Part shown: positions 1,339 to 22,151 of the stretch, in pieces
Numbering within the stretch: the first letter of the stretch is position 1
Layout: each line of letters starts with the position of its first letter
Source of the DNA: a virus
Direction: 5' to 3' (one strand)
DNA: 64,000 nucleotides
Virus record (IMG/VR): IMGVR_UViG_3300003937_000247
Made by a program: the position numbers and the translations under genes
The notes under the pieces: model-generated
The model's input: only the letters and a program-made list of their open reading frames with translations
Told to the model about the DNA's origin: nothing
Database searches by the model: none

Positions 1339-2088
1339 ATGAATATATTATTAACAGGTAGTGAAGGCTTTGTTGGCCAACATTTATTTAAATATTTAAA
1401 ACCCAATCATAAAATAATTTGTTTAGACAAGTTAGCAGGTAATGATTTATTATCCTGTGACTTAAAATATTCCGTAGATTTAGTTATACATCTTGCTGGT
1501 TTATCTGGCGTAAGAGATAGTTTAGAAAGATCAACAGAATATTGGATACAAAATGTAATCGCAGGTCAAAGACTTTTTGATTATTTCAAAGACACAAGAA
1601 TCCTATACGCAAGTTCATCAACAGCACACGAGCCTTGGAAAAATCCATATGCAATGAGTAAATATAGTTTGGAGCGTATTGCTCCTGCTAATAGTCTTGG
1701 TATGAGATTTACAACCATATATGGTCCTAATGCTAGAGAAAGTATGTTAATACCTAGAATATTAAGAAATGATGTGCCTTATATTAATACAAATCATAGT
1801 AGAGATTTTATACACGTGGAAGATGTTTGTTCGGCAATTTATTCTTTAATAACACACAATGCTATTACAGCTTATCCAAATCATACAGGTGTCATAGATG
1901 TAGGTTCTGGTACGACAAACAATCTTATAAAGTTAATTGATTACTTCAAAATTGACTGTGAGCGTGTTATAGGAGATGAGTATGAAAGAATAGATAATCT
2001 TGCCGATACTGCTATACTAAATAGTACTGGCTGGTCACCAAAGATTAATTTATATGACTATATTAAGGAGAATAAAAATGACAACTGA
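1339..2088 (+). CDS. NAD-dependent epimerase/dehydratase (extended SDR)
   Basis: ILLTGSEGFVG Rossmann motif, HLAG, YASSS, YAMSK catalytic YxxxK. Confidence 0.9.
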   Translation: MNILLTGSEGFVGQHLFKYLKPNHKIICLDKLAGNDLLSCDLKYSVDLVIHLAGLSGVRDSLERSTEYWIQNVIAGQRLFDYFKDTRILYASSSTAHEPWKNPYAMSKYSLERIAPANSLGMRFTTIYGPNARESMLIPRILRNDVPYINTNHSRDFIHVEDVCSAIYSLITHNAITAYPNHTGVIDVGSGTTNNLIKLIDYFKIDCERVIGDEYERIDNLADTAILNSTGWSPKINLYDYIKENKNDN

Positions 2089-2623
2089 AATTAGTGAAGC
2101 AAGTGCAATAACTGAAGAATATTTAAAAGATAATTTTTTAACAGCGTACTTCATTGACAATGAAAGACAAAACATAGAGATACAAACTACAACTAGAGAT
2201 AAGAAACAAGTTATAACAAATATTATACCTTTTGATGAAGAAGATGTAAAATTTAAAGCACTACAAAGTGTTATGAATGTGGATCAATTACACGAGTCTA
2301 CATACCAAAAAGTTAAAAACGAAAGAAAATTGTTTGAAGAAACAGTTTTAAGAATCGCAAAAAAAGATGGTATTGTTATGGACTCTGCTAAGATTGATAC
2401 AAAATTTTATCCAAAAGTAATTGACGCTCTTTTTAATGATGAGGAGAATGCAGATCATCTCTTTGCATTGAAATTAGCTGTATTTGAATTAGAAAAAATT
2501 AAAGATTCACAAGAAGAAGATTTAAAAAAACAAATAAGACAATCTAAATCTAAAACAGAAATTATAGCAAAAGTTTGTGAGATTTTACTTCCTAAACGAG
2601 ATATCCCTATTGGGGATATGTAA
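2078..2623 (+). CDS. Hypothetical protein
   Basis: AAGGAG RBS precedes ATG 2078; charged helical protein. Confidence 0.6.
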   Translation: MTTEISEASAITEEYLKDNFLTAYFIDNERQNIEIQTTTRDKKQVITNIIPFDEEDVKFKALQSVMNVDQLHESTYQKVKNERKLFEETVLRIAKKDGIVMDSAKIDTKFYPKVIDALFNDEENADHLFALKLAVFELEKIKDSQEEDLKKQIRQSKSKTEIIAKVCEILLPKRDIPIGDM

Positions 2624-3221
2624 GATCCGACTTTAAAAAATATTTAGAATACCAACCAGTCCATCCTACTTCCATTATGTGGTGCATTTGACCAAGCGTA
2701 CACATACTAATTTGAGATGTAGTATCAAAGGTCGCCCTTTGAGATGGTTTATTATAGATGTAATCCTTTATTGAAGGACATACTCTACCATAAGTTTTGT
2801 ATTTTATATTTTTGTAATACCATTCATCACTACCTCTTGTATAAGTGTCTATAAAATGCTTGTCATTAGCTTTAAATGTATTCCAGATGTGTGATACATC
2901 ACCTGTCCAAGATACAACAGACGAATTTAAAGGTGTATGATTAGGTTCTCTCCACCAAGTATCATCTAAAAGTGTAAAATCTTTTCTAATTAAGTTGGGT
3001 AATTTATCAAAGATAATAACATCCAAATCAAAGTATAAATTTTCACCATCTCTAAATCTATCATACATTTGAAATTTATTAAACCAATTACCATATAAGT
3101 CATCTTCAACAACTTCAAAACTATCATATTTTAGACCAGAGTATTTGTCTATCATATGTTTTAAGTTATCAACGTGCCATTGAGTAAACTTATTACCGAA
3201 TCTACAACAAATAATCCGCAT
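2607..3221 (-). CDS. GT-A-like glycosyltransferase
   Basis: WFNKFQMY, YFDLDVII (DxD), LNSSVVSW, GSDEW. Confidence 0.75.
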   Translation of the reverse strand: MRIICCRFGNKFTQWHVDNLKHMIDKYSGLKYDSFEVVEDDLYGNWFNKFQMYDRFRDGENLYFDLDVIIFDKLPNLIRKDFTLLDDTWWREPNHTPLNSSVVSWTGDVSHIWNTFKANDKHFIDTYTRGSDEWYYKNIKYKTYGRVCPSIKDYIYNKPSQRATFDTTSQISMCTLGQMHHIMEVGWTGWYSKYFLKSDLTYPQ

Positions 3222-3315
3222 TTATTTTTCTTCCTACTCCTGTGTAGTGTATAACTTTAAGTTTTTCGTTTACTTCTTTATCTAATATCATATAATCAGT
3301 ATTAAACTTTTTCAT
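3202..3315 (-). pseudogene. Detached C-terminal fragment of the upstream glycosyltransferase-like gene (37 aa)
   Basis: MKKFNTDYMILDKEVNEKLKVIHYTGVGRKINADYLL*; VIHYTG resembles the GT-A C-terminal His motif; ATGA overlap with the stop of 3312-3839. Confidence 0.5.
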
Positions 3316-3839
3316 ATTTTAACGTAATTTTGTTCGCCGTAGTATTTTTTATGTACAGTACCGTTATTATAAAAATGTAGTTGCCAGTATTCTGGATTAA
3401 GTGCGAAGTCATCCCAAACAAACTTCAAAGAACCTGATTTAAATTTATAAAACCCACCATTAATACCTAACTTGTTTTCCCACCATTGACCATATGTAAC
3501 TAATTCATTTTCTTCAACAGGCCAATTCAATAAATCATCTACATTGCTTACAATGACTTGATCTATATCCATAATGATAATATCATCACCTGGATTTTGA
3601 TGTGCAAATTGTGGACTGAAAAATTTTAGTTTGTGCCAATGTTTAACTATATTACTATGATGGTTGTAGGGGTAGATAAAGTCAGCCTTCATCCCTGGAT
3701 GTTCAAAAGGATGTTTTCTATCTGCTAAACATATAAACTGAAAGGGAACTGTTGAATGTTTTTTTAAACCTTCGTAAAGTTTAGAAACATAAACTGGTGG
3801 ATAAAAACCTTCAAAGAAGACTGTACATATTTTAAGCAT
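3312..3839 (-). CDS. GT-A-like glycosyltransferase (apparently C-terminally truncated)
   Basis: HWHKLKFF, IMDIDQVI (DxD), INGGFYKF, GEQNYV then early stop; start taken at MLKICTV. Confidence 0.7.
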   Translation of the reverse strand: MLKICTVFFEGFYPPVYVSKLYEGLKKHSTVPFQFICLADRKHPFEHPGMKADFIYPYNHHSNIVKHWHKLKFFSPQFAHQNPGDDIIIMDIDQVIVSNVDDLLNWPVEENELVTYGQWWENKLGINGGFYKFKSGSLKFVWDDFALNPEYWQLHFYNNGTVHKKYYGEQNYVKI

Positions 3840-4767
3840 TAAGTCTTCTCCACACAAGGTCAAAATCTTTATTAATCGTGTGGCAAAGGATTGTTTCTTC
3901 AGGTATAAAACCTTGATTATATAAAAAGTAGTGCCATTTGCTGTCTAACCACAGAACAGGTACCTCATTTTCTTTTAACTTAACTGAAAATAATGTTTCA
4001 TTATCCCAACCAAAGTATTGTCTTATTCTATCAGGAAATATGTTAGTTACATATTTGTCATTTACTGTTACGATTTGAGGATCTTCTCTACCTTTAGGAA
4101 TATATAAAATATCTCTTGTTTGGATTTTTAAATGTGACATTAAAGCCATATTCTCCTCAAACTCACCAAAGTAATCTAATCTTGCAAGATTTAATTTATT
4201 AATACCTACAATGCCAGTATTAATAACATCATTTTTAATACTCATTTTTTTTTCAAACAACATTGCTTGAGCATTATAATATTTTGATGATGGACTTCTT
4301 ATTGTTTGAGAGGTGTCAGTAATAGCTTCAATTGTATTAATTCTATCATTGTTATTTAATATTGCTATACCTTCATTTAAATTCCAATGTTCAAAAAAGT
4401 TTTCATTCTTCATAGGTACAACATCAAAATCCAAATATAATATTTCATCATATTCTTCAGCCAATAGATACATTAAATGTATCTTATAAAAGTTTATTAT
4501 ATTATACATTGTTAAGAAAGGATACTTTGTTTTCATTTTGGAATGATAAATCATAAAATCAGTATCATATTCATACAATTTAAAATCAGCACCTATTTTG
4601 TTAGCATACATTTCTTTTACAGCACAAAGGTCGCCATAATGAAGTTTAAACTGATTTTTTGTTCTTACGTTGACAGGAGTATCACCTTCTTTAAGGAGGT
4701 TTTTATCAAAGATATCTATGTCATCTTTTGGTATCTCAATATATAAAGTATAAATTATTCTTTTCAT
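3832..4767 (-). CDS. GT-A-like glycosyltransferase
   Basis: FYKIHL, ILYLDFDVV (DxD), INTGIVG, DNETLF, WHY. Confidence 0.75.
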   Translation of the reverse strand: MKRIIYTLYIEIPKDDIDIFDKNLLKEGDTPVNVRTKNQFKLHYGDLCAVKEMYANKIGADFKLYEYDTDFMIYHSKMKTKYPFLTMYNIINFYKIHLMYLLAEEYDEILYLDFDVVPMKNENFFEHWNLNEGIAILNNNDRINTIEAITDTSQTIRSPSSKYYNAQAMLFEKKMSIKNDVINTGIVGINKLNLARLDYFGEFEENMALMSHLKIQTRDILYIPKGREDPQIVTVNDKYVTNIFPDRIRQYFGWDNETLFSVKLKENEVPVLWLDSKWHYFLYNQGFIPEETILCHTINKDFDLVWRRLNA

Positions 4768-4902: not shown

Positions 4903-5781
4903 CTATGCTGGCAAAGGATTCTTTTCTAAATCCTCAACTCTTGGAAGCCTTCCAATTAATGTAAATCTTGTTCCTCTTTCATCATTAATTTCATCTTCTA
5001 TAAGTATTTCGCAATCTAAAGGTATTTGTGTTTTAAATTCTTTTACATTGTTTACACAATTTATATGAGTATCAATATTGAACATATCATTTGATTGGAA
5101 CGCAAAATGAGCAGTCTTTTTCATTCTTGTCCACCATGGAACTTTACGTGTAACTGGTACACCAAATTTAGAATCAAAGTATAGGGATTTAGGTCCTGGA
5201 GGTCCCCATTCAGACATTGGTCTCATATGTTCACAAGCGGTGTTAATGAAGATATCAGCATTTGTATATTCTTGTCTAAATTTTTCAAATACATCATCCG
5301 CAATAAAATTTACATTTGGGTAATCCATAAACAATCTATTTTTAGCTACATTTATTACTCTCTCGTCCATATCTATTGCTGTTATTTTTTTAACTCTAGG
5401 TGCTAATGCAGGGACTAGAATGCTTCCAAACCAACAACCAAATATAACTATTTCTGTTTGCTCGTTAATTAATCCAAATTCGTCAAGGTGATTTATGATA
5501 TTAAATTTTGCGTTAACTTGTGGTGTACTGAAAGAATCTAAAAGACTATATTCTATATCTGGTTCTTTTTTTATAGTTTGTAATACGTTGTCAAGCAATC
5601 TATAATCAATGCCGTCATTTGTTGCCTTTAATATATTGTGTAAGAAACCAAATTGGTCATCCTCTTTTATTGCATATAATATATCATCAAGTGTTCTATA
5701 GTTTATATTTTTATTTTGCAAATCTATAATATTTTTAAAAAATTTCAAATTTTCTCGTTCTATCATTTTCTTATAATCCAA
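4903..5781 (-). CDS. Class I SAM-dependent methyltransferase-like
   Basis: IVIFGCWFG motif I, ITAIDMD, ADDVF, INTACEHM. Confidence 0.75.
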   Translation of the reverse strand: MDYKKMIERENLKFFKNIIDLQNKNINYRTLDDILYAIKEDDQFGFLHNILKATNDGIDYRLLDNVLQTIKKEPDIEYSLLDSFSTPQVNAKFNIINHLDEFGLINEQTEIVIFGCWFGSILVPALAPRVKKITAIDMDERVINVAKNRLFMDYPNVNFIADDVFEKFRQEYTNADIFINTACEHMRPMSEWGPPGPKSLYFDSKFGVPVTRKVPWWTRMKKTAHFAFQSNDMFNIDTHINCVNNVKEFKTQIPLDCEILIEDEINDERGTRFTLIGRLPRVEDLEKNPLPA

Positions 5782-7277
5782 TCATTTATTATTAATATAT
5801 CCAAATCAGTTCTTCTAAAGGTTCTTAAAGCGTGTTGTGGTGTTTCTACAATTGGTTCCTGACAATTGAAACTTGTATTTAACAACATCGGTATGCCTGT
5901 TATCTTATAAAACTCATTCACTATATTATAAAACTTTTTGTTATCTTTTATATTTATAGTCTGTATTCTAGCCGTATTATCAACGTGAGTAATCCCTGGC
6001 ACTTTATCAGTTTTAACTTGACATATACGTGACATATAAGGACTAGGTCCTCCTCTTGTATCAAAATATTCTTGGTAATGTTCTTCTAATACAACAGGTG
6101 CAAACGGTCTAAAATCTTCTCTCTTTTTTACTGTATGATTAATAATATCTTTAATATCAGGATTGCGTGGGTCTGCTAATATGCTTCTATTACCTAATGC
6201 TCTATTACCACTTTCTGATTTACCTTGAAACCAACCTACAATTTTTCCATCAGCAATTGCTTGTGCCACTTCTTTGTAATCTGCTTTTTCTTCACCTAGG
6301 TAATTATATTCTCTACCAGCATATGTGTTTGTTTTGTGTATATTATTATTTAAAGTAAAGTCAGCGTGTTGATATGTTCCTATTGCTTGTCCTTCATCAC
6401 CTACAGCAGGTGGTATGAAAACACTTTTATAATGTTTAGTAAATTCTTCGTTCATATATCCATTGTAAGCAACGCCACCTGCAATACATAAGTTATCACA
6501 AGTCTTTAATGGGTACACATATTTTTTAATTTTATCAATTGTAAATTTTTGAAGTGTGTATGCTAGGTCATCCATGCCGTGTGTTTCAACATCAATTTTT
6601 TTAAACTCTTTATATTTTCTTTCTAATACAGGTCCGTCCATTATGATTTCAAACGCATTATAATAATAACTACTATACTTACCATATCCAACTTTACCCA
6701 TAAGTTTACTTGCACCAAGTGTACCAAAACCTGTAAGATTAGACATATGGTTCCATAACCAACCAAGAGGTAGTACATCTGATAAGTCTATTAAATTTTG
6801 ATCTTTGTCAAAGAATACACATCTAAATTTTGATCCTATACCATCAATTGCTAGTATATCTGATTGTTTAAAACCAGAGTTTATAAATGCGTAAGCAGCG
6901 TGTGATTGATGATGGTCTATAAAGTAGATATTATCTTTGTAATAATAATCCCATAATTTTTTAGGGTCGTAATTAAATATTTCATCATGGCCTTTTAAAA
7001 CTGTTTTTAGTAATTCATCTTTTGATTTTCTTACACCACCATAAGTATATGTCCAAGCTAGAATACCATCATCAGGTTTTTTAAAATATCTTTCAGTAAA
7101 CTCATCATTTAATCTATAGTCGCCAGGATCCAATATGTCTGATTGATGAGCATATGCCTCGGCTCTATATGGTAAGTTGTGTTTAAATCTTGTTTGTCTT
7201 TCTGCTTGATAATGATATGCACCATCATAGGTATTGTGGTCGTGTAAATTTAATGCTACGGAATATATTTTACTCAT
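5763..7277 (-). CDS. O-carbamoyltransferase (NodU/CmcH/TobZ family)
   Basis: HHQSHAA, IDGIG, AGGVAYN, GDEGQAIG, GNRALGNRSILADP, KREDFRPFAP, HVDNTARIQT, LNTSFN. Confidence 0.95.
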   Translation of the reverse strand: MSKIYSVALNLHDHNTYDGAYHYQAERQTRFKHNLPYRAEAYAHQSDILDPGDYRLNDEFTERYFKKPDDGILAWTYTYGGVRKSKDELLKTVLKGHDEIFNYDPKKLWDYYYKDNIYFIDHHQSHAAYAFINSGFKQSDILAIDGIGSKFRCVFFDKDQNLIDLSDVLPLGWLWNHMSNLTGFGTLGASKLMGKVGYGKYSSYYYNAFEIIMDGPVLERKYKEFKKIDVETHGMDDLAYTLQKFTIDKIKKYVYPLKTCDNLCIAGGVAYNGYMNEEFTKHYKSVFIPPAVGDEGQAIGTYQHADFTLNNNIHKTNTYAGREYNYLGEEKADYKEVAQAIADGKIVGWFQGKSESGNRALGNRSILADPRNPDIKDIINHTVKKREDFRPFAPVVLEEHYQEYFDTRGGPSPYMSRICQVKTDKVPGITHVDNTARIQTINIKDNKKFYNIVNEFYKITGIPMLLNTSFNCQEPIVETPQHALRTFRRTDLDILIINDWIIRK

Positions 7278-8109
7278 TTAATACACTCCCATATTTTGAT
7301 ATAGGAAAATGACCTTTAGGGTTAACATATTCCATACAACTTTTACAATAACTCTCATATTTAAATAATCTATAATTCATCATTTTGTCAACGTTCTCCT
7401 GTGTAATTTCAAAATTTTTAGATACTATTAAATTATTAGCAAACTTTTTGCTACAATGTACTATGTGTCTTTTCTCAAAATCTATAACTGGCACCATAGG
7501 GAAAGCTGCACACATTTTTCTATCTATCTCGGCTGATTGTTCATCAATAACTTCTTTCATATTATCTTTGTTAGGCGTTCTACCATTAAAGGTTTTAAAC
7601 ATTGTGTTGTTATGACTTATTGCTTTTATATCTTCGGGAAAGTTATCTTTGTATTTAAAATAGTTAGGTGTTTTAACAACTAGATTGTAATTGTTAAAAT
7701 TATTCTCTGGTAACCAAGGAAAATTACCTAACTTCTCAATTCTGTCTTCATAAAAATCTTCTGTTGAGTGTTCTACATAAAGTATATCTTTATCTTCTAG
7801 TATTTCAGGATATCTTTTTCTAACAAAAGAGTTTGATAATACTGAACAAACAAAATTAGGATACTTTTTAATTTCATTAATAACATCTCTTAAATTTTTA
7901 ATTAGACCTGGCTCACCACCTAATAGACAAACACGAATTTTATATTTCCTTAACTTCTCTAAAGTACTCTTTAGAAAATCCATATCAACAGTTAAGTTTC
8001 TCATCTCTAAAGTATAACTTGTACAATAATGGCAAGATTTATTACACGACATAGATAGGAAGAAGTCTATGGCTAAATAATCTTGTTGTATTTCTTTTAA
8101 ATTTTTCAT
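7270..8109 (-). CDS. Radical SAM protein
   Basis: CNKSCHYC, LLGGEP, C-terminal Cys set (C..C..CKSC). Confidence 0.9.
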   Translation of the reverse strand: MKNLKEIQQDYLAIDFFLSMSCNKSCHYCTSYTLEMRNLTVDMDFLKSTLEKLRKYKIRVCLLGGEPGLIKNLRDVINEIKKYPNFVCSVLSNSFVRKRYPEILEDKDILYVEHSTEDFYEDRIEKLGNFPWLPENNFNNYNLVVKTPNYFKYKDNFPEDIKAISHNNTMFKTFNGRTPNKDNMKEVIDEQSAEIDRKMCAAFPMVPVIDFEKRHIVHCSKKFANNLIVSKNFEITQENVDKMMNYRLFKYESYCKSCMEYVNPKGHFPISKYGSVLNE

Positions 8110-8426
8110 CTATTATCAAATTTGTTAAAGAACAGTTTATTAAATGCTATTAACAACTTCTCTTTAGGTCTACTTTTAAAATTGGTTTTTTTGAAAAGAT
8201 AATCAGACCTTTCGTAACATTTTTCTATAATATATTCATAAATGTCCTCATTTTCTTTTTCAGTAAGTGACCTGTCTATAACTAATTTATCTCCAAATAT
8301 AAATTGCATTCTTTTAACAAACTGGATTAATCTGTATGGAATATCATCTGTTATATCAACCATATTATTAGTATCATCAACATAACAAAAATTAGTTCCT
8401 TTTGGACTTACAATTATCTCATTCAT
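8106..8426 (-). CDS. Hypothetical protein
   Basis: Coupled by 4-nt overlaps on both sides. Confidence 0.6.
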   Translation of the reverse strand: MNEIIVSPKGTNFCYVDDTNNMVDITDDIPYRLIQFVKRMQFIFGDKLVIDRSLTEKENEDIYEYIIEKCYERSDYLFKKTNFKSRPKEKLLIAFNKLFFNKFDNR

Positions 8427-12292: not shown

Positions 12293-12342
12293 TCAATAGA
12301 GCACTTATAAGTTATGCCAGATAATTTGACAAAGGAGTTGAA

Positions 12343-13579: not shown

Positions 13580-14109
13580 TGTGGTATCATAGAAAATTTA
13601 AATTACGATATGACGCTAACGTGTTCAATGATATAATTGAATATGCTAAAACAGCAGAATGGAAACAAGGTTACGATCAAAATGGTTTAATATGGAACAT
13701 TGAAGAACTGCCTTTAAAACCTGAACAGTTTCCTATACTAAATGAATTATACGAAGGTCTAAATGCAGAATTTAAAAGACCTTCTTTTTTCCTCAGCAAT
13801 GTAAAACCAGGTGGGTTAGTAAATCATATAGACCATAACAAATGGGGTAATCTTGGTATACCAATACTAGGAGATTTTAAAAATACACCTCAATATTTTT
13901 ACGACCAATTCAATCATCCTGTAGAGTCATTTATAAATGATAGTCCTGTTATATTCAACACACGTATGCTACACGCTGTGCCTAGAGAATTAGACGACAC
14001 AGGACCGAGATGGATTTTAATGATGGATTTATTTGATTGGGTTGATAAGTTATTTGCTAAAGTTGATAATAAAACAATATGGACAGACACAAAGAATTTT
14101 AATGCGTAA
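13579..14109 (+). CDS. Fe(II)/2OG oxygenase-like cupin
   Basis: PGGLVNHID, FNTRMLHAVP, RW. Confidence 0.7.
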   Translation: MWYHRKFKLRYDANVFNDIIEYAKTAEWKQGYDQNGLIWNIEELPLKPEQFPILNELYEGLNAEFKRPSFFLSNVKPGGLVNHIDHNKWGNLGIPILGDFKNTPQYFYDQFNHPVESFINDSPVIFNTRMLHAVPRELDDTGPRWILMMDLFDWVDKLFAKVDNKTIWTDTKNFNA

Positions 14110-15793
14110 CTTTTATTTTTTACAATTACCTTTGACAAGTGACGCTGCTTGTTTACCTCAAGCAATAGGTACTATATGGAGTTATTGTGAACAATTTAAA
14201 GAAGTAAATACAAAATATAGACTTTCAGGTGTATGGTGGATAGAAAAGATAGACATAATTGAGCCAGACGTTGTGGCTGCAAGTTGTTATATGTGGAACT
14301 GGAAAGAAACATATGAAGTATTAAAAGATGTAAGACGTAGGTATCCTAAATGTAAAATAATTGTAGGTGGTCCTGATCCACAATATACATCTGAATGGTG
14401 TAAAAAGCATCCTGAAATAGACGCTGTGATGGCATACTATGGTGAAGAAACTATGAGAAGATTTTTAGTTGAGGACAATTTAGATATACCTGGTATAGTT
14501 ACTAAAGATTTTAACAATGCAGCTCAGGCAGAATATGCTGATCCTAAAATGATTCCTAGTCCATATCTAAATGGATTCTTTGATAGGTTATTAAAAGGTG
14601 ATTGGAGTACTAAAAAATTCCGCTATAATAAGAAACCAATTAGAGTAATATTTGAAGGTAATAGAGGTTGTCCTTATACTTGTTCCTTCTGTGATATTGG
14701 TCACAAGAAATATACTAAAATACAAATGTTTGATACAGAAAAATGTTTACAAGAATTGCAATGGATGTGTGAAAAAAATGTAAGTTCCATAGATGTTGCT
14801 GATAGTAACTTTGGTATATTTCCTAGAGATGAAAAATTTGTAGATTATATAGTATCACAAAAAAAACTTGGTGTCTTTAATGGTAGATTTATGCCTACTT
14901 GGGCAAAAACACACGGTGACAAAATAATCAGATTAGCAAAAAAATTGCAAGACGGTGATGTAGATGAGATATTTGGATTTAGTTTACAAAGTACAAATCC
15001 TGAAACTTTAACTAAAATAAAAAGAAGAAATGCGTTTGATATAAAAGACTTTAGACCTATTATAAAAGATTTAAAAAAGGATGGTGTTTCATCATATACT
15101 GAATTAATATTCCCTTTACCAGGAGATACACTTGAAACATTTAAAAATGGTTTACACGAAATAGTTAATATGCCTGCACCGTTTGATATGATACAAATTA
15201 ATACATTAAGTAGATTAAGTAATACAGAATTTAATACTGGATTTCCTGAAATGAAATGGAAGAATATAAAAGGTACTGCAAAACCATATAACAATGATGT
15301 TATAGATGAGATTGCTGTTGCAACAGACACAATGACAGAAGAGGAAGTGTTTGAAGGATTTTTCTATAGTAGAAGTTTTATTATACCAATGTATTGGTAT
15401 GGTCTATCAAAATATTTAGCAGATTGTTATTATGATATTAATAACAATAGAAGTGAATTATATAAAAACATTTATAATAATTTATTTCAACAAAAGGTAT
15501 TTTCTGATCATAAGTTGGAAGTAAAAGAACATTACTTTAAAGCAATAAACGATTATAAAGATATTGGATATAAGATACTTATTGATGATATAAATTACTA
15601 TACAGATACAGCTTATTCTCATTTGTTTTATGTTGAGAATAATATATTTGGTACGCTAAAAGAAATGTATCCTGAATATGATGAAATTATTGACCAAAAT
15701 AGAAATGATTTCAGACCTATTTTTGATAAAAAGGAATGGCTACGGGATATTCACGTAAGAGGAAGATTTGGCGAATCTTGGAAAGATGTATAA
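14102..15793 (+). CDS. Cobalamin-binding (class B-like) radical SAM protein
   Basis: N-terminal B12-binding-like domain (SCYMWN, IIVGGP, YGEE), RGCPYTCSFC, DSNFG, LPGDT; start at ATG 14102. Confidence 0.9.
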   Translation: MRNFYFLQLPLTSDAACLPQAIGTIWSYCEQFKEVNTKYRLSGVWWIEKIDIIEPDVVAASCYMWNWKETYEVLKDVRRRYPKCKIIVGGPDPQYTSEWCKKHPEIDAVMAYYGEETMRRFLVEDNLDIPGIVTKDFNNAAQAEYADPKMIPSPYLNGFFDRLLKGDWSTKKFRYNKKPIRVIFEGNRGCPYTCSFCDIGHKKYTKIQMFDTEKCLQELQWMCEKNVSSIDVADSNFGIFPRDEKFVDYIVSQKKLGVFNGRFMPTWAKTHGDKIIRLAKKLQDGDVDEIFGFSLQSTNPETLTKIKRRNAFDIKDFRPIIKDLKKDGVSSYTELIFPLPGDTLETFKNGLHEIVNMPAPFDMIQINTLSRLSNTEFNTGFPEMKWKNIKGTAKPYNNDVIDEIAVATDTMTEEEVFEGFFYSRSFIIPMYWYGLSKYLADCYYDINNNRSELYKNIYNNLFQQKVFSDHKLEVKEHYFKAINDYKDIGYKILIDDINYYTDTAYSHLFYVENNIFGTLKEMYPEYDEIIDQNRNDFRPIFDKKEWLRDIHVRGRFGESWKDV

Positions 15794-16404
15794 TGTTAAT
15801 TGAACAAGGTAAATTTTATGTTAAATGTCATAACATATATTACAACCAACAATGGTTAGTTGATGTGTTAGATAGTTTATCTCCTAAAGATTGGGTAGAT
15901 GGTGTTAGCACAACAGGTGTGGCATGGACAGTTAGTGAATGTAGAACTATTCCATACGAAGGAATGTGGAAAGATATTGTAGAAAATATTAATTTAGATA
16001 CTGTAGGAAGCTCAGAAAGAGGACTAGAAGATAAAAAACCTTGGTGTTTCTTTTCTAAATTACCACCAGGTGGTATCAATCTTCATTATGACCATAGACG
16101 TTGGGGTGCTATACTATTTCCTGTAAGAGGTAAGTTTGAACTTACGCCTCAAATATTTGCAACTGAAAATTATACAGAAATAGAAAGATTTAATTTTGAG
16201 AAAAGTAAAATACATAACAATGGTACACCAGTATTTTTTGACAGCAGAGTTTTACACGCTGTACCTACACCTATAGATGATGAGGAAGAAAGAGTTGTAT
16301 TTTCTGTCAACATACACTCACACCCTACAGAAATGTATAAGAAGGCAATAGATGGAACTTGGTTAAATAAAAATACAGAAAATATAGGAGTATCAAATGA
16401 CTAA
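15793..16404 (+). CDS. Fe(II)/2OG oxygenase-like cupin
   Basis: PPGGINLHYD, FDSRVLHAVP, RVVFS; TAATG coupling. Confidence 0.7.
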   Translation: MLIEQGKFYVKCHNIYYNQQWLVDVLDSLSPKDWVDGVSTTGVAWTVSECRTIPYEGMWKDIVENINLDTVGSSERGLEDKKPWCFFSKLPPGGINLHYDHRRWGAILFPVRGKFELTPQIFATENYTEIERFNFEKSKIHNNGTPVFFDSRVLHAVPTPIDDEEERVVFSVNIHSHPTEMYKKAIDGTWLNKNTENIGVSND

Positions 16405-16999
16405 TTTCTATTCTATACAAGCAGATAAATTAAAGTTTGATAGAGATATGCTGGTTGACTTTTATAAAACTGTGGATCAAACTAAATGGATACATAGACA
16501 GGACAAGTTACCTCAATATTGGCCTATAGATGAAAATAATAGTTTTGATCGTAACCATGAATTTTATAAACTACTCGTAGAGAATATCAATGTTGATGTA
16601 GATGAAAATAGAATATATTTTAGTAGAGTACATCCTGGTGGTATACCAAATCATTGGGACTTTGAAAATTTTACTAAATTACAATTTCCAGTTATTTGTG
16701 ATGAGAAGAATGATGACTGGTCTAAAACACCAGTAATTTTTATAGACCAATTTGATCAAACTGTAGAGCGTGTAGAACATACAAATAATACACCTCTACT
16801 TTATAGTGCTAATTATATGCACGGTACAATTAAATCTTTAGATAACCATAATGATAGAATAACATTTGTTGTTGATTTAAAATTTTGGTTTGAAAGAGTT
16901 AGGATAAAGTATAACGAGGGTACTTTATTTACGAATAACAAAGCGTTTTCTTGGAGTGACACCACGTTTGTTATGGACGAGGACCCACTCGTTAATTAA
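16397..16999 (+). CDS. Fe(II)/2OG oxygenase-like cupin
   Basis: HPGGIPNHWD, YMHGT, DRITF. Confidence 0.7.
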   Translation: MTNFYSIQADKLKFDRDMLVDFYKTVDQTKWIHRQDKLPQYWPIDENNSFDRNHEFYKLLVENINVDVDENRIYFSRVHPGGIPNHWDFENFTKLQFPVICDEKNDDWSKTPVIFIDQFDQTVERVEHTNNTPLLYSANYMHGTIKSLDNHNDRITFVVDLKFWFERVRIKYNEGTLFTNNKAFSWSDTTFVMDEDPLVN

Positions 17000-17028: not shown

Positions 17029-17229
17029 ATGAAAAAAATAGTAATGATAATAGGAACACTTTTAATAACAGCTGCAATAGCAGGTTGTTCTATACCTAAA
17101 AATCCAAAACTAACTTTTGGTAAGAAGTGTGTAGATAAAGGTGAAAATATTGTATATTCATATGTATGGTTATATGATAAAGAAGGTGGCTTAGAAGCCA
17201 ACGAAGATACTTGTAAAAAGATTGACTAA
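17029..17229 (+). CDS. Small lipoprotein
   Basis: MKK + hydrophobic stretch + IAGC lipobox. Confidence 0.7.
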   Translation: MKKIVMIIGTLLITAAIAGCSIPKNPKLTFGKKCVDKGENIVYSYVWLYDKEGGLEANEDTCKKID

Positions 17230-17260
17230 ATAACAACACTAGTTTATTGTGAGGTATATT

Positions 17261-17767
17261 ATGATGAGATTGATTATGACATTTTTATGTATTTCAGGCG
17301 TTCTTGCCTTGGGAAGGATAATTCCACATCCCCCAAATTTCACACCAATATTAGCTACAGCAATCTATACTCCATATTTGATTAATGATAGATGGATTGC
17401 AATGGCTATTCCTTTGTTAGCAATGTTTATTGCTGATATAGTTATAGGTTTTCATCCATATATGTTATGGGTATATGGTGCGATAGGTTTATCAACTTTA
17501 ATTAGTGATTGGTCAATGCAGTTTAATAAAAAGTATATTCAATTAGGTGCAATGGCAATTGTATCTTCTGTATTATTTTTTATCATAACAAATTTTGCAG
17601 TATGGACTATGTGGGATTATTATCCAAAAACAATTGATGGTTTAATAATGTGCTATACAATGGCAATACCTTTTTTTAAAAATACATTATTAGGAACTAT
17701 AGTATATACATCACTTATAGTATTAACAGTTCAGAAAGGAATGAAATATGCGAAAAATTATATTTAA
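17261..17767 (+). CDS. DUF6580-family putative transport protein (ECF S-component-like)
   Basis: RIIPHPPNFTPI, FFIITNFAVW, CYTMAIPFFKNTLLG; multi-TM; GAGGT RBS before ATG 17261. Confidence 0.8.
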   Translation: MMRLIMTFLCISGVLALGRIIPHPPNFTPILATAIYTPYLINDRWIAMAIPLLAMFIADIVIGFHPYMLWVYGAIGLSTLISDWSMQFNKKYIQLGAMAIVSSVLFFIITNFAVWTMWDYYPKTIDGLIMCYTMAIPFFKNTLLGTIVYTSLIVLTVQKGMKYAKNYI

Positions 17768-17933
17768 AATAATTTTGTTAATGGGATTAGTAGGCTGTTC
17801 AAGTCATACATTCGCACCAGATACAACGACATTAAAATATGGTCAAACTGGCCAAGATGGTGATGGTGTTAATGGTGATTACGATTCAAATAATTTTGCC
17901 ATTACACAAACGTTTAAATGGTCAAAACAGTAA
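17748..17933 (+). CDS. Small lipoprotein
   Basis: MRK + hydrophobic stretch + LVGC lipobox. Confidence 0.65.
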   Translation: MRKIIFKIILLMGLVGCSSHTFAPDTTTLKYGQTGQDGDGVNGDYDSNNFAITQTFKWSKQ

Positions 17934-17947: not shown

Positions 17948-19237
17948 ATGCCACCCGATCTTATACTTTGGGCAATAATTGGTACCTTTAGTGGTGTATT
18001 ATTTGGTCTTATACCTGGTGCAGGAGCTTTTATTGCAACAGCAATTTTATATCCTTGGTTAACTGATATATCTTCCATCAATGTTATGATGTATTATGTA
18101 ACAGTTTTGATAGCGACACAATATACAAATAGTGTTACAGCAATTCTATATGGTATACCTGGTGACGCAGCTGCTATGGTTACAGCCCGAAATGGACATA
18201 GACTATTCTTAAAAGGTTTTGGTCACTTAGCCGTGACTAGTAATGCAGTCAGCAGTACAGTTGGAGTTATATTTGCAACAACTGTTTTTATTTTAATATT
18301 ACCCACAGTTATAGAAGTGTTTAGATTTTATAATAGTGTACTACAAACTTTTATTATTGCAGCTGTAATATTAATGATTACTTTTTTAACTAAACAAAAC
18401 AAATTGATAACAATATCATTTTTTGCATTGGGAGGTATACTTGCAAAAATAGGTGTTGATGGTGTTACATTTGATAAATTTCTAGTGTTTAATAATTCAT
18501 ATTTGGCAATAGGTGTACCTTTTGCAAGTGTGATGATTGGGTTGTATATTGTACCTGAATTATTAAGATTGAAAAGTTTTAAAATTGAAACACCTAAACG
18601 TATAAATACTTTTACAGTTGGTAAAGATACAACTACGCCTACACTCATAGGATGCTTCGTAGGTTTTTGGTGTGGTCTTGTACCAGGTGTTACAAATATT
18701 CTTGGCAGTTATGCTAGTGCAAATATTGTTAAACGGTTTTTCAAAAAACCAGTACTAAAAAGCATAGCAGCCGCAGAGGCAGCAAATAATAGTGGCGCTC
18801 TAAGCTCACTCTTGCCTTTGCTTATACTAGCGATACCTATCACAGGTAGTGAAGTGTTGATATTTTATATTATGTTAGAAAATGGTTTTACTTTCAACGC
18901 TACAAATACAGTTAATAAATTAGGAGATATAATTTATATTATTCCTTTTGTTACTGTTTTTTGCCTTTGGTTAAGTTGGTATGGCTTCAATCTGTTAGGA
19001 AAGATTGCATATTACTATAAGAGATATAGAAATATTGCCAATCTCATTCTCCTCTCTACAATCGGTACAGTAAGTATTTTAATATTTCCAAAGCACGAAT
19101 GGATGTTAATTTGCATACTTACTCTTTCTGCTATCGGTTTTTTACTCAAACGCTGGGATACAAGTCCTGTTATATATGGATATTTCTTAAGCGATTTATT
19201 TTACGAAAATTTAATTAGAACACTAATTATCTTATAA
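17948..19237 (+). CDS. tctA: Tripartite tricarboxylate transporter large permease, TctA family
   Basis: GLIPGAG, AILYGIPGD, GLVPGVT, AAEAANNSG; polytopic membrane protein. Confidence 0.85.
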   Translation: MPPDLILWAIIGTFSGVLFGLIPGAGAFIATAILYPWLTDISSINVMMYYVTVLIATQYTNSVTAILYGIPGDAAAMVTARNGHRLFLKGFGHLAVTSNAVSSTVGVIFATTVFILILPTVIEVFRFYNSVLQTFIIAAVILMITFLTKQNKLITISFFALGGILAKIGVDGVTFDKFLVFNNSYLAIGVPFASVMIGLYIVPELLRLKSFKIETPKRINTFTVGKDTTTPTLIGCFVGFWCGLVPGVTNILGSYASANIVKRFFKKPVLKSIAAAEAANNSGALSSLLPLLILAIPITGSEVLIFYIMLENGFTFNATNTVNKLGDIIYIIPFVTVFCLWLSWYGFNLLGKIAYYYKRYRNIANLILLSTIGTVSILIFPKHEWMLICILTLSAIGFLLKRWDTSPVIYGYFLSDLFYENLIRTLIIL

Positions 19238-19253: not shown

Positions 19254-20039
19254 ATGAAAAAAATAATGATGATACTATTGAGTATGTTTATAACAACCTC
19301 TTTGTACGCTCAAGTAACAATAGTGAACCCAGGTTCAAGCGAAGGTGCGTTTAGACAAGTACTCACAACAATAGGTTCAACATTTGACCACGACTTTGTT
19401 CAGGCTCATAATCCAGTTACTGCTTATTCTTACATAGATGGAGCAGTTGACGGTACTGAACCAATGTTAACTGTTTGGTCTAGTGAATGGCCAGGTGATG
19501 ATAGTTTACAAAGTCCAAAAATATCTAAAGATAATATAATTGCTTTGATGACATATGAAACGCTTATATGTAGCAGACAATTCAATTCATTAGAAGATAT
19601 GGGTGGTAAAACTGTTAAGATTGCAACGTGGGGAAGTGAACCTGTTGCAAAATTTTTAAATAATTTAGGTGCAAAGTATGATGTTAATTTTGTAGTTGTG
19701 CCTTATGGTGGAAGCGGAAGTACAACAAAAGGTTATATTGGCAAAGACGCTAATACAGTCTTTACAATTACTTCACGCCAATCCGCATTGGAAGAAGATA
19801 CGTCAACAAAATGTATTGCCTTTTCTGAACACGGTGATTTCGGTTTTAGATTTTTAGACGCTATTATTACTGTCAATGCTAATGACGCCTTGGTTAATGA
19901 ATTACGTTCTACTGTAACAAACCTCTCTAATACTGACGAGTGGAAAAGTAAATTCAAAGGCTCTGTAATTTACATAGGTAACGGCACAGATAAAACAATT
20001 AATATGTTTGAAGAAGCTGTTTTAAACTTTAGTAAGTAA
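19254..20039 (+). CDS. tctC: TctC/Bug-like periplasmic substrate-binding protein
   Basis: Signal peptide, IVNPGSSEG, VVPYGGSG, adjacent to tctA. Confidence 0.7.
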   Translation: MKKIMMILLSMFITTSLYAQVTIVNPGSSEGAFRQVLTTIGSTFDHDFVQAHNPVTAYSYIDGAVDGTEPMLTVWSSEWPGDDSLQSPKISKDNIIALMTYETLICSRQFNSLEDMGGKTVKIATWGSEPVAKFLNNLGAKYDVNFVVVPYGGSGSTTKGYIGKDANTVFTITSRQSALEEDTSTKCIAFSEHGDFGFRFLDAIITVNANDALVNELRSTVTNLSNTDEWKSKFKGSVIYIGNGTDKTINMFEEAVLNFSK

Positions 20040-21357: not shown

Positions 21358-21394
21358 TTTTCATAATATATAGATGTAAAATAACTATAAGATA

Positions 21395-21742
21395 TTATCT
21401 CTTAAAGTCACCATTGTCAAATTTATAAGCCCAATTAGGTTCTACTTTCATTGACTGCTCTTGTACACCTTCGTCTATTGATGGTAATTTTGATCTCTCT
21501 CCATCCCATTCTTTAAAGGTTTCTTCATCTGCAAACTCTCTTATGATTATAACACTTTTGTTATCAACATTTAATTCAGCTTGTTTGACTACTTTATAAT
21601 TTTCGTCATTAGCAATATGTTGTTTAATAATATCTGTATCAATTTTAGCTGAAGATGTTTTGTTAAAAAAATCTTCAACTGAACCGAAAGTTAAGCTCGA
21701 GTCAACGTTTGTTAGCTTCCATTTTTTAGTTACTACTGGCAT
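21395..21742 (-). CDS. Hypothetical protein (paralogue of 21744-22151)
   Basis: GAGGAG RBS before MPVVTKKW; shares TF..V/QDFF, DI..H..N.E, D.K.VI..R.F.D...W pattern. Confidence 0.65.
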   Translation of the reverse strand: MPVVTKKWKLTNVDSSLTFGSVEDFFNKTSSAKIDTDIIKQHIANDENYKVVKQAELNVDNKSVIIIREFADEETFKEWDGERSKLPSIDEGVQEQSMKVEPNWAYKFDNGDFKR

Positions 21743-21743
21743 T

Positions 21744-22151
21744 TTATTTGTACTCCTCTTCTTTGTGTCTTTTTTTGCTTTCCCATTGCTCATAGTCCAT
21801 AATTGGGTATGTGACACCTACATCCCACGAGTCTATGTCTATAAAACTATTGGCACCGCCTTCTTCTTCAGAAATATTAAAGTCAACGTTTGGGAGGAAC
21901 GCTCTATTTTTTTTCCATATTTCATAGCTATTAAAATCTTCAAATCTTCTTAATGTGATAACTGTTTTTTTATCTGCTAGCAAGAACGAATCTTGTGCCG
22001 CTATATTTTTCTCATTATTTTGTTTGTGCGCTTTTATGTCTTCAGGATCTGTCGCTCCTGTATATGTATTGTCAAAGAAATCTTGTGGGTCCTCAAACGT
22101 AGTTTCAGGACTAACAGTATTTAGATATCTCCATTGTGTGTCTATGCTCAT
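21744..22151 (-). CDS. Hypothetical protein (paralogue of 21395-21742)
   Basis: AAGG RBS; aligns by eye with the downstream gene. Confidence 0.65.
   Translation of the reverse strand: MSIDTQWRYLNTVSPETTFEDPQDFFDNTYTGATDPEDIKAHKQNNEKNIAAQDSFLLADKKTVITLRRFEDFNSYEIWKKNRAFLPNVDFNISEEEGGANSFIDIDSWDVGVTYPIMDYEQWESKKRHKEEEYK

Follow-up and report, generated by a model that had tools for sequence, protein, structure and literature searches.

A conserved island of glycan-tailoring genes among the tail-fibre genes of a marine T4-like phage, with virion decoration as one possible role

Gene content and layout of the island

The window (the whole 64,000-nucleotide stretch analysed) comes from a marine T4-like phage of SAR11 bacteria, and the island lies among its tail-fibre genes. 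The only near DNA match is Pelagibacter phage Mosig (77%). The island type has been described previously: it belongs to the published pelagimyophage "host recognition cluster" (HRC; PMC7029224), of which this region forms the glycan part, in two modules. Module 1 (genes 369-12262) is a soluble, cytoplasmic block whose content is kept across more than 80 viral contigs. Module 2 (genes 12343-22151) is an optional cassette: only about one relative in four has it, and some of the genes it holds here occur in none of the relatives compared. The genes fall into four transcription units, 369-2623 (+), 12262-2607 (-), 12343-20039 (+) and 22151-20029 (-), rather than the three operons of the original prediction. 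Gene content was checked with sequence searches (Pfam, NCBIfam, PDB) or with fold search. Module 1 contains the following genes:

369..1304, plus strand: gene 0, Ser/Thr-rich (26%) and beta-rich, heading the unit that includes the epimerase
1339..2088, plus: SDR of the NAD-dependent epimerase/dehydratase family (PF01370, E 4.8e-23)
2054..2623, plus: conserved 189-residue protein, charged and helical, always after the epimerase
2607..3221, minus: small DxD glycosyltransferase-like protein, GT-A type (phrog_1962; D-x-D invariant across the family)
3222..3863, minus (ORF 3312-3863): second small DxD glycosyltransferase, broken here (phrog_1962, E 3e-12)
3832..4767, minus: GT8, family 8 glycosyltransferase (PF01501, E 7.5e-8, above cut-off)
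4903..5781, minus: probable SAM-dependent methyltransferase (Methyltransf_25, E 5e-5, below the Pfam cut-off)
5763..7277, minus: NodU/CmcH-type O-carbamoyltransferase (Carbam_trans_C, E 5e-65; Carbam_trans_N, E 3.5e-19)
7270..8109, minus: radical SAM enzyme, CxxxCxxC at residue 22
8106..8426, minus: conserved 106-residue protein without an assigned role
8423..9517, minus: DegT/DnrJ/EryC1-family sugar aminotransferase (PF01041, E 5e-77)
9514..10377, minus: SGNH/GDSL-fold hydrolase or acyltransferase (model pLDDT 82)
10379..10738, minus: free-standing SPASM/twitch-like Cys-rich protein (weak: SPASM E 0.005, twitch radical SAM E 0.004)
10722..11405, minus: radical SAM core, CxxxCxxC at residue 30
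11387..12262, minus: first gene of the core operon, GT-B (GT1/GT4-like) candidate (phrog_24441)

Gene 0 is probably a structural protein of the fibre module. Its Ser and Thr content is like that of fibres and unlike that of enzymes. The family is very large (719 clusters at 50% identity, mostly of about 300-330 residues) and diversified, which fits the expectation for an exposed virion part. Pfam and PHROG searches gave no match; the structural model (pLDDT 85) resembles only beta-prism (MABP) domains, weakly (Z 6), and Foldseek returned no match for it. In L183, gene 0 stands between fibre and neck genes with the island absent.

Most of the predicted enzyme list was borne out. The epimerase, the aminotransferase and the carbamoyltransferase all have Pfam, NCBIfam or PDB matches. 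The SDR partially matches GalE and dTDP-glucose dehydratase models, and the aminotransferase is closest to PseC (E 1e-53) and LegC (E 2.5e-47), in all cases below the equivalog cut-offs, while the carbamoyltransferase matches GdmN, NovN and TobZ at E 1e-50 to 1e-44. The SGNH assignment holds by fold search, with PatB, TesA and acetyl esterases matched at probability 1.0; residues S11, G51, G53, D255 and H257 are invariant in this protein, the fastest-evolving of the block (31-51% identity among relatives). Three radical SAM enzymes, one of them B12-binding, are present as predicted (7270-8109, 10722-11405 and 14033-15793). The one at 7270-8109 has more than 1000 relatives in metagenomes, and that at 10722-11405 travels together with the SPASM/twitch-like gene in rearranged relatives. 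No membrane protein was found in the core block, which lies inside the fibre module.

The glycosyltransferases confirmed are GT8 and the two DxD, GT-A-like phrog_1962 members, the second of which is truncated. This protein has 240 residues in relatives; here a deletion of about 100 nt causes a frameshift that leaves the last ~38 residues out of frame in 3222-3311, and at 3317/3318 an additional 103 letters are present in contigs from RNA libraries. The protein at 11387-12262 is probably a fourth glycosyltransferase, of GT-B/GT4-like type; this lead comes from language-model neighbours only (0.92, 180 shared features), and its PDB profile search was empty. The methyltransferase has a family match, but one scoring below the Pfam cut-off, together with weak NCBIfam methyltransferase matches, so that it stands on weaker ground, as do the oxygenase, ATP-grasp and DUF6580 assignments in module 2. 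The module 2 genes are:

12343..12929, plus: two small genes, found only in the present genome among the relatives compared
12926..13579, plus: cupin/Asp-Arg-hydroxylase-like protein (H132, D134 and H184 invariant)
13579..14109, plus: first of three paralogues with an invariant HxD...H...R (2OG-oxygenase-like) motif
14033..15793, plus: cobalamin-dependent (class B) radical SAM methyltransferase (B12-binding and Radical_SAM domains)
15736..16404 and 16397..16999, plus: second and third HxD...H paralogues
17029..17229 and 17748..17933, plus: two small lipobox proteins flanking the DUF6580 gene
17249..17767, plus: DUF6580 membrane protein
17948..19237, plus: TctA-family permease (PF01970, E 1e-52)
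19254..20039, plus: secreted, binding-protein-like protein with a signal-like N-terminal segment
20029..21357, minus: probable ATP-grasp ligase
21395..21817 and 21744..22151, minus: two paralogous small acidic proteins

Of the two small genes at 12343-12929, one aligns with the C-terminal portion of a PagP-annotated PHROG, and the other encodes a MazG-domain protein. The class B enzyme matches TokK (E 2e-46), CysS (E 1.5e-35) and, below cut-off, the KedN5 family (E 9e-50). The four predicted Fe/2OG-type oxygenases share a conserved HxD...H(...R) motif, but only the protein at 12926-13579 shows family matches, all weak (Cupin_2, E 0.002; Asp_Arg_Hydrox, E 0.04; a PDB beta-hydroxylase, E 0.015), and no Pfam family matched 13579-14109; as oxygenases, these cupin/2OG-like proteins are lead-level candidates. 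The ATP-grasp assignment is likewise a lead: it draws only on a D-x-N-P-R motif and on its neighbours in a language model (0.96), and PDB profile searches were empty. Of the two import systems predicted, the TctA permease stands by its Pfam match; DUF6580, for which no PDB relative was found, is a lead-level importer candidate.

Promoter elements and timing

The regulatory elements lie at the heads of the transcription units:

262..302, plus: two TATAAATA late-type boxes, at 262 and 295, upstream of gene 0
12268..12296, minus: sigma-70-type promoter (TTGATA, 17-nt spacer, (TGT)TATAAT), heading the main operon
12285..12292, plus: TATAAATA late-type box of the plus-strand operon, within the spacer of the sigma-70 promoter on the other strand
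22182..22199: second divergent junction with two boxes standing back to back, CATAAATA on minus (22189-22182) and TATAAATA on plus (22192-22199)

The number of TATAAATA copies is not above expectation (15 found, 14.8 expected). Eleven of the 14 plus-strand copies lie wholly in non-coding DNA, which makes up 3.5% of the window, and CATAAATA occurs only twice in the whole 64 kb, both times at a divergent junction. The TATAAATA copy at 22192-22199 is 5 nt upstream of an in-frame ATG at 22205. Among relatives, NATAAATA is found at operon heads in 17/22, 23/29, 8/10, 6/6 and 9/12 cases (17/22 being distinct relatives with gene 0 homologues, 8/10 and 6/6 the second-junction boxes), compared with about 0-10% before most internal genes. 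Judged by this placement and conservation, the T4-type late boxes are real elements, conserved at operon heads. Mosig carries the late machinery gp55, gp33 and gp45, and gp55 is also present in two island-bearing relatives. The expectation of a late-type box at each operon start was only partly right: 1339 has no box directly upstream, its gene following gene 0 with the boxes at 262 and 295, and the sigma-70 promoter had been overlooked.

Of the four 11/12 matches in 20 kb, the sigma-70 promoter alone has an extended -10; it falls in an 80-nt divergent junction. Only 5 nt separate the end of its -10 from the ATG at 12262, which would make the mRNA leaderless or nearly so. Among 31 distinct relatives, 22 retain this promoter, 18 of these at 11/12 or better; the same conservation was not found upstream of other genes of the region. 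In Mosig, gp55, primase and further early genes have promoters of this class in front of them. The CATAAATA box (12284-12277) on which the original prediction relied lies within the spacer and is not retained in other subgroups. For RB49 and cyanomyoviruses, an overlap of early and late promoters has been proposed to give "middle-like" expression (PMC2984593), and the overlap seen here predicts that the core operon is expressed from early infection onward. We propose that host sigma-70 RNA polymerase would read the main operon of module 1 from the leaderless promoter early in infection, with a late-type box overlapping or in tandem; gene 0, the epimerase and module 2 have late-type boxes only. 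The original prediction, that every operon is late and the product therefore made at assembly time, does not follow with a near-consensus sigma-70 promoter heading the core operon, and the timing argument for virion decoration appears weakened.

A coherent pathway and its possible targets

With the carbamoyltransferase as anchor, about 80 contigs retain the content and mostly the order of genes 0-14, and about 60 contigs anchored independently on gene 0 do likewise. Protein identity is 55-86%, and the content is kept even after rearrangements. Among 185,579 species genomes the block is missing, the exceptions being three MAG-binned contigs with gene 0 or most of the block, which look like phage DNA. 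The co-occurrence of genes 0-14 supports, at the level of gene content, a coherent glycan-tailoring system rather than a random mix. The island is real, a conserved enzyme set plausibly for building and attaching a modified amino sugar. The SDR, the PseC/LegC-like aminotransferase and two radical SAM enzymes would form an activated amino-deoxy-sugar; the carbamoyltransferase, methyltransferase and SGNH enzyme would add or edit O-carbamoyl, methyl and O-acyl groups; and three or four glycosyltransferases would transfer the sugar to an acceptor. Module 2 may contribute the B12-dependent C-methylase, four cupin-like oxygenase candidates, the ATP-grasp candidate and envelope or transport proteins.

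Our preferred guess for the acceptor, inferred and held at somewhat short of an even chance, is the virion fibre proteins. Still in the cytoplasm and not yet assembled, the phage's own Ser/Thr-rich proteins of the fibre module would receive the glycan, giving the virion a sugar coat that differs between strains. This is favoured by the epimerase being co-directional with fibre-like gene 0 behind TATAAATA boxes, by a self-contained, cytoplasmic, phage-specific core block within the fibre module, by the coherence of the pathway and the co-occurrence and order of genes 0-14, by genuine late boxes with late machinery present, and by DNA being disfavoured as target. There is also a precedent for phage-encoded virion glycosylation (Freeman et al. 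2023, cited in PMC12801897). We know of no T4-like phage that glycosylates its own virion. Synthesis of the LPS/LOS core is where GT8 and small GT-A enzymes are typically found, which speaks against a virion target, as does the broken glycosyltransferase of the present genome. The linkage to fibre genes may reflect merely a permissive insertion site, since in cyanomyophages and HTVC008M similar enzymes lie elsewhere or next to unrelated genes, and gene 0 occurs without the island in L183. Nor are late boxes proof of a virion target, because the host-envelope-directed proteins of module 2 also stand behind one.

The strongest conserved signal of the core operon is its early-type promoter, with which host envelope remodelling fits at least equally well. 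Here, phage enzymes working at the cytoplasmic face would extend or alter the LPS/LOS or capsule of the infected SAR11 cell, and the product would leave through host export machinery, changing the receptor landscape so that superinfection is blocked or progeny are kept from sticking to debris. Such a role was put forward for the same island type (PMC7029224) and for cyanomyophage clusters (PMC12801897). GT8, DegT, SGNH O-acyl editing and carbamoylation are classic surface-glycan tools, SAR11 genomes have their own NodU-type carbamoyltransferases, some near SDR and DegT genes, and module 2 brings lipoproteins, the TctA permease and the PagP-annotated match. However, the block lacks a flippase, polymerase, ligase, priming transferase or membrane protein and does not follow the GtrABC-type pattern, known serotype converters are temperate, eleven kb is a large cost for exclusion, and the operon heads also keep late-type boxes; we consider this role somewhat unlikely. 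A diffusible or intracellular small molecule, aminoglycoside-like or derived from a nucleotide sugar and acting on host or competitors, with module 2 providing extra tailoring and transport, seems improbable. The mix of enzyme classes is like that of aminoglycoside clusters, and the closest solved relatives of the carbamoyltransferase (TobZ, GdmN, NovN) and of the B12 radical SAM enzyme (TokK, CysS) act on natural products; for one cyanomyovirus, the presence of "antibiotic synthesis genes" has been suggested (PMC12801897). Against this, domain searches found no scaffold-forming enzyme (2-deoxy-scyllo-inosose synthase, PKS or NRPS), three or four glycosyltransferases indicate a glycoconjugate, and the transporter is an uptake-type TctA in the optional module.

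Unrelated auxiliary genes dumped in a permissive hypervariable site, with no common product, are also quite improbable. The literature does call the region hypervariable (PMC7029224), module 2 is patchy with genome-unique genes, and one glycosyltransferase is broken, but genes 0-14 keep their content despite rearrangements, share one conserved promoter and make up a chemically coherent pathway. Glycosyltransferases expressed from an early-type promoter are also how T4 glucosylates its DNA, and those of the core operon stand behind such a promoter. Sugars on phage DNA bases, protecting against host nucleases as in T-even phages, are nevertheless very unlikely, because neither a ThyA-family hydroxymethylase nor TGT/DpdA was found in Mosig or in the island-bearing relatives G001 and G002 (the latter 100% complete). 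Moreover, Mosig carries ThyX, the enzymes are of nucleotide-sugar tailoring types, and restriction systems are rare in SAR11 (PMC7029224). The original view that a modified DNA base is unlikely is supported; virion decoration is possible, though timing does not favour it.

Comparison with known systems

T4 alpha/beta-glucosyltransferases share with the island an early-type promoter ahead of glycosyltransferases in a T4-like phage, but belong to unrelated enzyme families and act where a hydroxymethylase supplies the attachment point, which is missing here. GtrABC/Oac serotype conversion likewise uses phage genes to alter host surface glycans, and the SGNH protein could plausibly perform O-acetylation. 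GtrABC and Oac, however, are embedded in the membrane and carried by temperate phages, whereas the island block is free of membrane proteins and belongs to a lytic, T4-like phage. Giant viruses have whole amino-sugar pathways, cytoplasmic and acting on virion proteins. In mycobacteriophages, virus-encoded cytoplasmic glycosyltransferases act on virion proteins (Freeman et al. 2023, cited in PMC12801897). Glycosylated virion proteins are demonstrated in both, whereas the island is known from its genes, which are of different families and in a phage of a Gram-negative host.

RB49 and cyanomyoviruses (PMC2984593) also have a sigma-70-type promoter and NATAAATA overlapping or in tandem at a gene head, and MotA/Asi are not expected in them or in this phage group. 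There the overlap was described for replication-type genes; here, as read from the DNA, it heads a glycan operon. The "LPS / cell wall synthesis and modification" clusters of the cyanomyoviruses P-SSM2, S-SCSM1 and S-SCSM2R (PMC12801897) resemble the island in being carried by T4-like marine phages and in their many glycosyltransferases, NDP-sugar epimerases, aminotransferases and radical SAM enzymes. Nol-like carbamoyltransferases are common in phages (146 phage records), and that of S-CAM8 adjoins 2OG oxygenases and fibre genes. However, the cyanomyovirus carbamoyltransferases are only 31-40% identical to that of the island, gene set and order differ, and no counterpart of the conserved block was seen in isolates other than Mosig.

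The closest system is the pelagimyophage HRC (Zaragoza-Solas et al. 2020, PMC7029224), which occurs in the same phage group and at the same site, among tail fibres upstream of the neck genes, with matching content classes (GT8, other glycosyltransferases and radical SAM cassettes). The HRC was treated as non-syntenic and hypervariable, and late-promoter prediction failed in pelagimyophages (PMC7029224). Here, by contrast, a 15-gene block is strongly conserved, late boxes are clear, and a conserved early-type promoter stands at the head of the core operon.

Genomic setting and the two modules of the island

The sequence belongs to a T4-like marine myovirus whose sole near DNA match, among the 50,697 phage records searched, is the Pelagibacter phage Mosig (EXVC030M), at 77% DNA identity covering part of the island. 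Mosig carries a syntenic gene set between VrlC/fibre genes and further fibre genes; VrlC lies just upstream of the syntenic block in Mosig and outside the window here. Downstream of the island, the window continues with fibre genes (23224-36813), a neck/adaptor gene (36928) and genes for terminase, sheath, portal, scaffold and the major capsid protein. Just 3' of the capsid gene, outside the island, 51256-52650 encodes a radical SAM domain protein (phrog_14086). The fibre module also includes an 88-aa protein (22944-23210) in which Ser+Thr make up 32% and the first 35 residues hold four or five N-x-S/T motifs.

To collect relatives, IMG/VR was searched from three anchors: the carbamoyltransferase, which gave 343 relatives, the B12 enzyme, which gave 21, and, as an independent anchor, gene 0, which gave 304. 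All island proteins were mapped onto the loci fetched. The island consists of the following parts:

369-1304, plus strand: gene 0, encoding a Ser/Thr-rich protein
1339-2088, plus strand: epimerase gene behind gene 0
12262 down to 2607, minus strand: core operon, lying with gene 0 and the epimerase gene in the core block (369-12262, module 1)
12343-22151: optional cassette (module 2)

Roughly 80 contigs carry the genes of 369-12262 together as a single block whose content is constant and whose order is mostly so. Rearrangements are few and leave the content intact, either moving the radical SAM/SPASM pair or inverting the whole operon. Synteny comparison, proposed in the original prediction, thus recovered a conserved core block of 15 genes even after rearrangement, and random shuffling of gene content, which had been named as evidence against a system, was not borne out for this block because it recurs as one unit. 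The genes of 12343-22151 occur in about 20 contigs; elsewhere the first gene of the core operon directly adjoins small fibre-module genes. No other locus compared has the two genes at 12343-12929. On six other IMG/VR contigs of 65-257 kb (L096-L100 and L102), the B12 radical SAM, the HxD paralogues and TctA with its binding protein are found at about 66% identity; these contigs do not carry the core block, so module 2 travels independently of module 1.

In a scan of 185,579 species genomes, the block was found only on three MAG-binned contigs (L186, L187 and L188), labelled Pelagibacter, Gammaproteobacteria and Rhodobiaceae. All three carry most of the phage block and two also carry gene 0, and for this reason they look like phage DNA in MAG bins. 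SAR11 chromosomes held only distant carbamoyltransferases (32-37%), some in loci near SDR/DegT genes.

Enzymes encoded by the island

Gene content was checked by Pfam, NCBIfam, PHROGs and PDB sequence searches and by one fold search. The individual proteins discussed here are:

3222-3863, minus strand: second small glycosyltransferase
5763-7277, minus strand: O-carbamoyltransferase
9514-10377, minus strand: SGNH enzyme
11387-12262, minus strand: candidate GT-B-like transferase
12926-13579, 13579-14109, 15736-16404 and 16397-16999: Fe(II)/2OG or cupin oxygenase candidates
14033-15793: B12-binding radical SAM enzyme
20029-21357: ATP-grasp candidate

Most of the assignments made from the sequence were upheld. 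Family searches recovered the SDR epimerase, TctA and the DegT aminotransferase, whose nearest relatives are PseC/LegC; the GT8 glycosyltransferase was confirmed by Pfam. The two small DxD transferases belong to phrog_1962 with an invariant DxD, and 32 members of this family gave one marginal match to Pfam. The NodU-type O-carbamoyltransferase has a Kae1-like N domain and a YrdC-like C domain, both above the Pfam cut-offs. Its nearest solved relatives are TobZ/GdmN/NovN, and its score falls below the NodU equivalog cut-off. All three radical SAM proteins are present, two small and one cobalamin-dependent. One small enzyme is paired with a free-standing SPASM/twitch-like partner, and PDB sequence searches with both small enzymes returned nothing useful. 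The cobalamin-dependent enzyme combines an N-terminal B12-binding domain with a radical SAM core bearing CxxxCxxC, and resembles TokK/CysS-like (class B) methylases. The SGNH assignment is confirmed by a predicted structure (pLDDT 82) with 29 Foldseek matches at E ≤ 0.001, those listed being almost all SGNH/GDSL-type (e.g., PatB and TesA). S11, D255 and H257 are invariant in 24 sequences, with the Ser near the N-terminus and the Asp/His pair near the C-terminus; the pair is spaced D-x-H instead of D-x-x-H.

Other assignments are leads. A candidate ATP-grasp ligase is suggested by language-model neighbours at 0.96 and by invariant K146, G150-G152 and D326-x-N328, while Pfam, NCBIfam and PDB sequence searches gave no match; a chromosomal homologue (P0230) lies on a 2.6-Mb contig. 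For the four oxygenase candidates the HxD/E...H triad residues are invariant, but family matches were weak and limited to one protein. The profile-profile probability linking the two groups of candidates was 6.6%, and PDB sequence searches with these paralogues yielded nothing useful. Language-model neighbours and motifs offer a lead to a fourth, GT-B-like transferase, whose PDB sequence search was similarly uninformative. DUF6580 has no solved relative detectable in PDB sequence searches. A match to a solved cobalamin transporter was likewise absent, and the idea that DUF6580 imports B12 therefore stays conjecture; of the 21 related loci, only about 8 pair the B12 enzyme with a DUF6580 homologue. 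Literature searches returned nothing on DUF6580 or on this enzyme combination in cyanophages. Large protein searches brought up nothing but near phage relatives or proteins lacking a Pfam family, and so yielded no bacterial context.

A hydropathy scan found no transmembrane segment in any protein of 369-12262; the membrane, lipobox and signal-peptide proteins of the island all lie within 12343-20039. The second small glycosyltransferase gene is broken here: compared with relatives, which encode 240 aa, it has lost about 100 nt, and the final ~38 residues are out of frame as a result. In two RNA libraries, environmental contigs have 103 additional letters at 3317/3318, and the intact and broken forms therefore seem to coexist.

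Late-type boxes and an early-type promoter

The island comprises four transcription units, not three as originally described. The late-type box TATAAATA is no more frequent in the window than expected by chance. Its position is informative: 11 of the 14 plus-strand copies lie wholly in the non-coding 3.5% of the window, just upstream of structural genes. Within the island region it precedes 369, 12343 and 22205, and the two minus-strand units carry only the variant CATAAATA. In relatives, NATAAATA, the accepted late motif of T4-like cyanophages (PMC2984593), is found upstream of operon-first genes in 17/22, 23/29, 8/10, 6/6 and 9/12 cases and is rare before most internal genes. The genes for gp55, gp33 and gp45 are annotated in Mosig, all three falling outside the window, and a gp55 homologue (E 2e-74) is present in two island-bearing relatives. 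Late-promoter prediction in this phage group has been reported as unsuccessful (PMC7029224). The boxes at operon heads are good late-promoter candidates. A metatranscriptome contig (run X17) starts exactly at 22217, preceded by an Illumina adaptor and 18 nt 3' of TATAAATA at 22192-22199, which may faintly hint at a transcript end near that box.

The late-type boxes at operon heads are real, but the original statement was incomplete, as the strongest signal, a conserved early-type sigma-70 promoter, was missed. On the minus strand at 12296-12268, TTGATA is followed by a 17-nt spacer and TGT-TATAAT, an extended -10 with TG. This site sits in the divergent junction, and only 5 nt separate the end of its -10 from the core operon's ATG. 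It scores 11/12, which ties the top sigma-70 score in 20 kb, and is the only top match with an extended -10. Upstream of the core operon in 31 distinct relatives, 22 sequences reach 10/12 or better and 18 reach 11/12 or better. Conservation covers the -35, the TGn-extended -10 and the fixed 5-nt distance to the ATG, and the spacer varies between subgroups. Other upstream regions almost never reach 11/12 (two isolated single matches, with 8-61 sequences per gene). Mosig has the same sigma-70 class with very short leaders before the genes for gp55, primase, a nuclease and a tRNA, and its core operon contains a perfect 12/12 site upstream of the radical SAM gene.

The two promoter types overlap. 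In one subgroup, CATAAATA of the window forms part of the sigma-70 spacer, which also contains the plus-strand TATAAATA belonging to the neighbouring operon; other subgroups have a NATAAATA box immediately 5' of the -35. For RB49 and the cyanomyoviruses, which lack MotA/Asi, an overlap of early and late promoters is the arrangement proposed to give middle-like expression (PMC2984593). On this basis, the core operon is predicted to be transcribed from early infection onward. The premise that the product is late, and so made at assembly time, is contradicted by this conserved promoter. For gene 0, the epimerase, the optional cassette and the ATP-grasp unit, the only boxes are of the late type.

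The 12262-12343 interval is a compact bidirectional control region, in which the 17-nt spacer contains both TATAAATA on the plus strand and CATAAATA on the promoter's own strand. One form of polymerase bound there could therefore keep the other out, and a compact early/late switch at the divergent junction is possible; a late box of one operon within the spacer of the other's early promoter would be a further novelty if true. Contigs from the RNA libraries of three studies span the entire island at ≥99% identity, some of them bridging the divergent junction; being contigs, they resolve neither timing nor strand nor start sites, and DNA carry-over is possible. The 3' ends of the convergent operons share 17 nt at 2607-2623 and 11 nt at 20029-20039; with no room for a terminator, their transcripts would be partly complementary. 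Within the core operon, a 135-nt gap at 4767-4903 holds a terminator-like hairpin (minus strand, 4831-4816), and no promoter motif is conserved in relatives before the gene that follows.

Candidate product, acceptor and comparison with known systems

The enzyme set very probably makes an activated amino-deoxy-sugar, edits it and attaches it to an acceptor. Judging by their families, the SDR, the aminotransferase and the radical SAM enzymes would supply the activated sugar, which would then undergo O-carbamoylation, methylation and O-acyl editing before three or four transferases place it on the acceptor. Virion proteins are tentatively the favoured acceptor. The block is self-contained and cytoplasmic, lies within the fibre module, and has phage-encoded glycosyltransferase genes adjoining structural genes. 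The epimerase gene is co-directional with gene 0 behind late boxes, and the gene 0 product is Ser/Thr-rich (26%), beta-rich, free of any enzyme signature and a member of a very large, diversified family. Phage-encoded virion glycosylation also has experimental precedent, as cited in PMC12801897. However, the fibre linkage may be merely positional. A related GT-MT-carbamoyltransferase-UDP-glucose dehydrogenase cluster lies beside ribonucleotide reductase genes in HTVC008M. Next to its own ribonucleotide reductase genes, in its early region (MT647606 124832-130666; L105 37451-43285), Mosig carries another glycan-type cluster, made up of two glycosyltransferases, a sulfotransferase and two methyltransferases and lacking TATAAATA boxes.

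Alternatively, the glycan may remodel the envelope of the infected host. This reading, which is somewhat doubtful, agrees with the early-type promoter of the core operon, the LPS-like enzyme families, the host's own carbamoyltransferases, the envelope proteins in the optional cassette and the published interpretation of the island, in which the host O-chain is modified to avoid coinfection (PMC7029224); against it, the block lacks an export or membrane component. A small-molecule product is improbable, and the absence of any common product slightly more so. Modification of DNA is very unlikely. PF00303 (ThyA-family hydroxymethylase) was not found in Mosig or in the island-bearing relatives G001 and G002 (G002 being 100% complete), with controls matching 10/14 genomes, nor was PF01702 (TGT/DpdA) in the same three, with controls matching 14/14; Mosig carries ThyX. 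The original view of a coherent glycan system rather than a DNA-base pathway therefore stands, without its timing premise.

Gene 0 was considered separately. In one relative, L183, fibre genes stand on one side of it and neck genes on the other. Foldseek searches of its predicted structure against the PDB and viral models gave no match, and VIA-align reached only Z 6 to beta-prism domains, within the chance range. Obligatory coupling of gene 0 to the block was dropped, since locus L183 has gene 0 beside neck genes but no island, and variants that are reduced or different occur on several fragments.

No bacterial group in the ocean is more abundant than SAR11, and marine data contain the block very commonly, with 343 relatives of the carbamoyltransferase in IMG/VR and over 1000 of the radical SAM protein in metagenomes. 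The place where the glycan ends up, virion or host surface, decides phage-host recognition and competition. Abundant T4-like SAR11 phages might, though this is rather unlikely, coat fibre or other virion proteins with a phage-made carbamoylated, methylated amino-sugar glycan; fast evolution of the transferases and the acyl-editing enzyme would then give strain-specific virion surfaces. If true, this would be the first virion glycosylation system in T4-like and in marine phages. The analysis delimits a conserved unit of 15 genes that can be tested, makes DNA an unlikely target of modification, shows that virion decoration cannot be argued from timing and supplies promoter motifs for a group in which their prediction had reportedly failed. 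Since Mosig is cultured and carries the syntenic block, decisive experiments are feasible.

GtrABC/Oac serotype converters use a membrane-embedded flippase, transferase or acyltransferase, whereas the hydropathy scan gave no transmembrane segment for the proteins of 369-12262. T-even DNA hypermodification and 7-deazaguanine DNA modification differ in their ThyA-type hydroxymethylase and TGT/DpdA, respectively, both absent from Mosig, G001 and G002. In contrast, the pelagimyophage host recognition cluster (PMC7029224) comes from the same lineage of T4-like marine phages and has the same content of GT8 glycosyltransferases and radical SAM cassettes. Because the content and, as far as the window reaches, the location match, the island kind is already known; the island is a well-defined member of it, to which the conserved block, the promoter architecture and the two-module structure add new detail.
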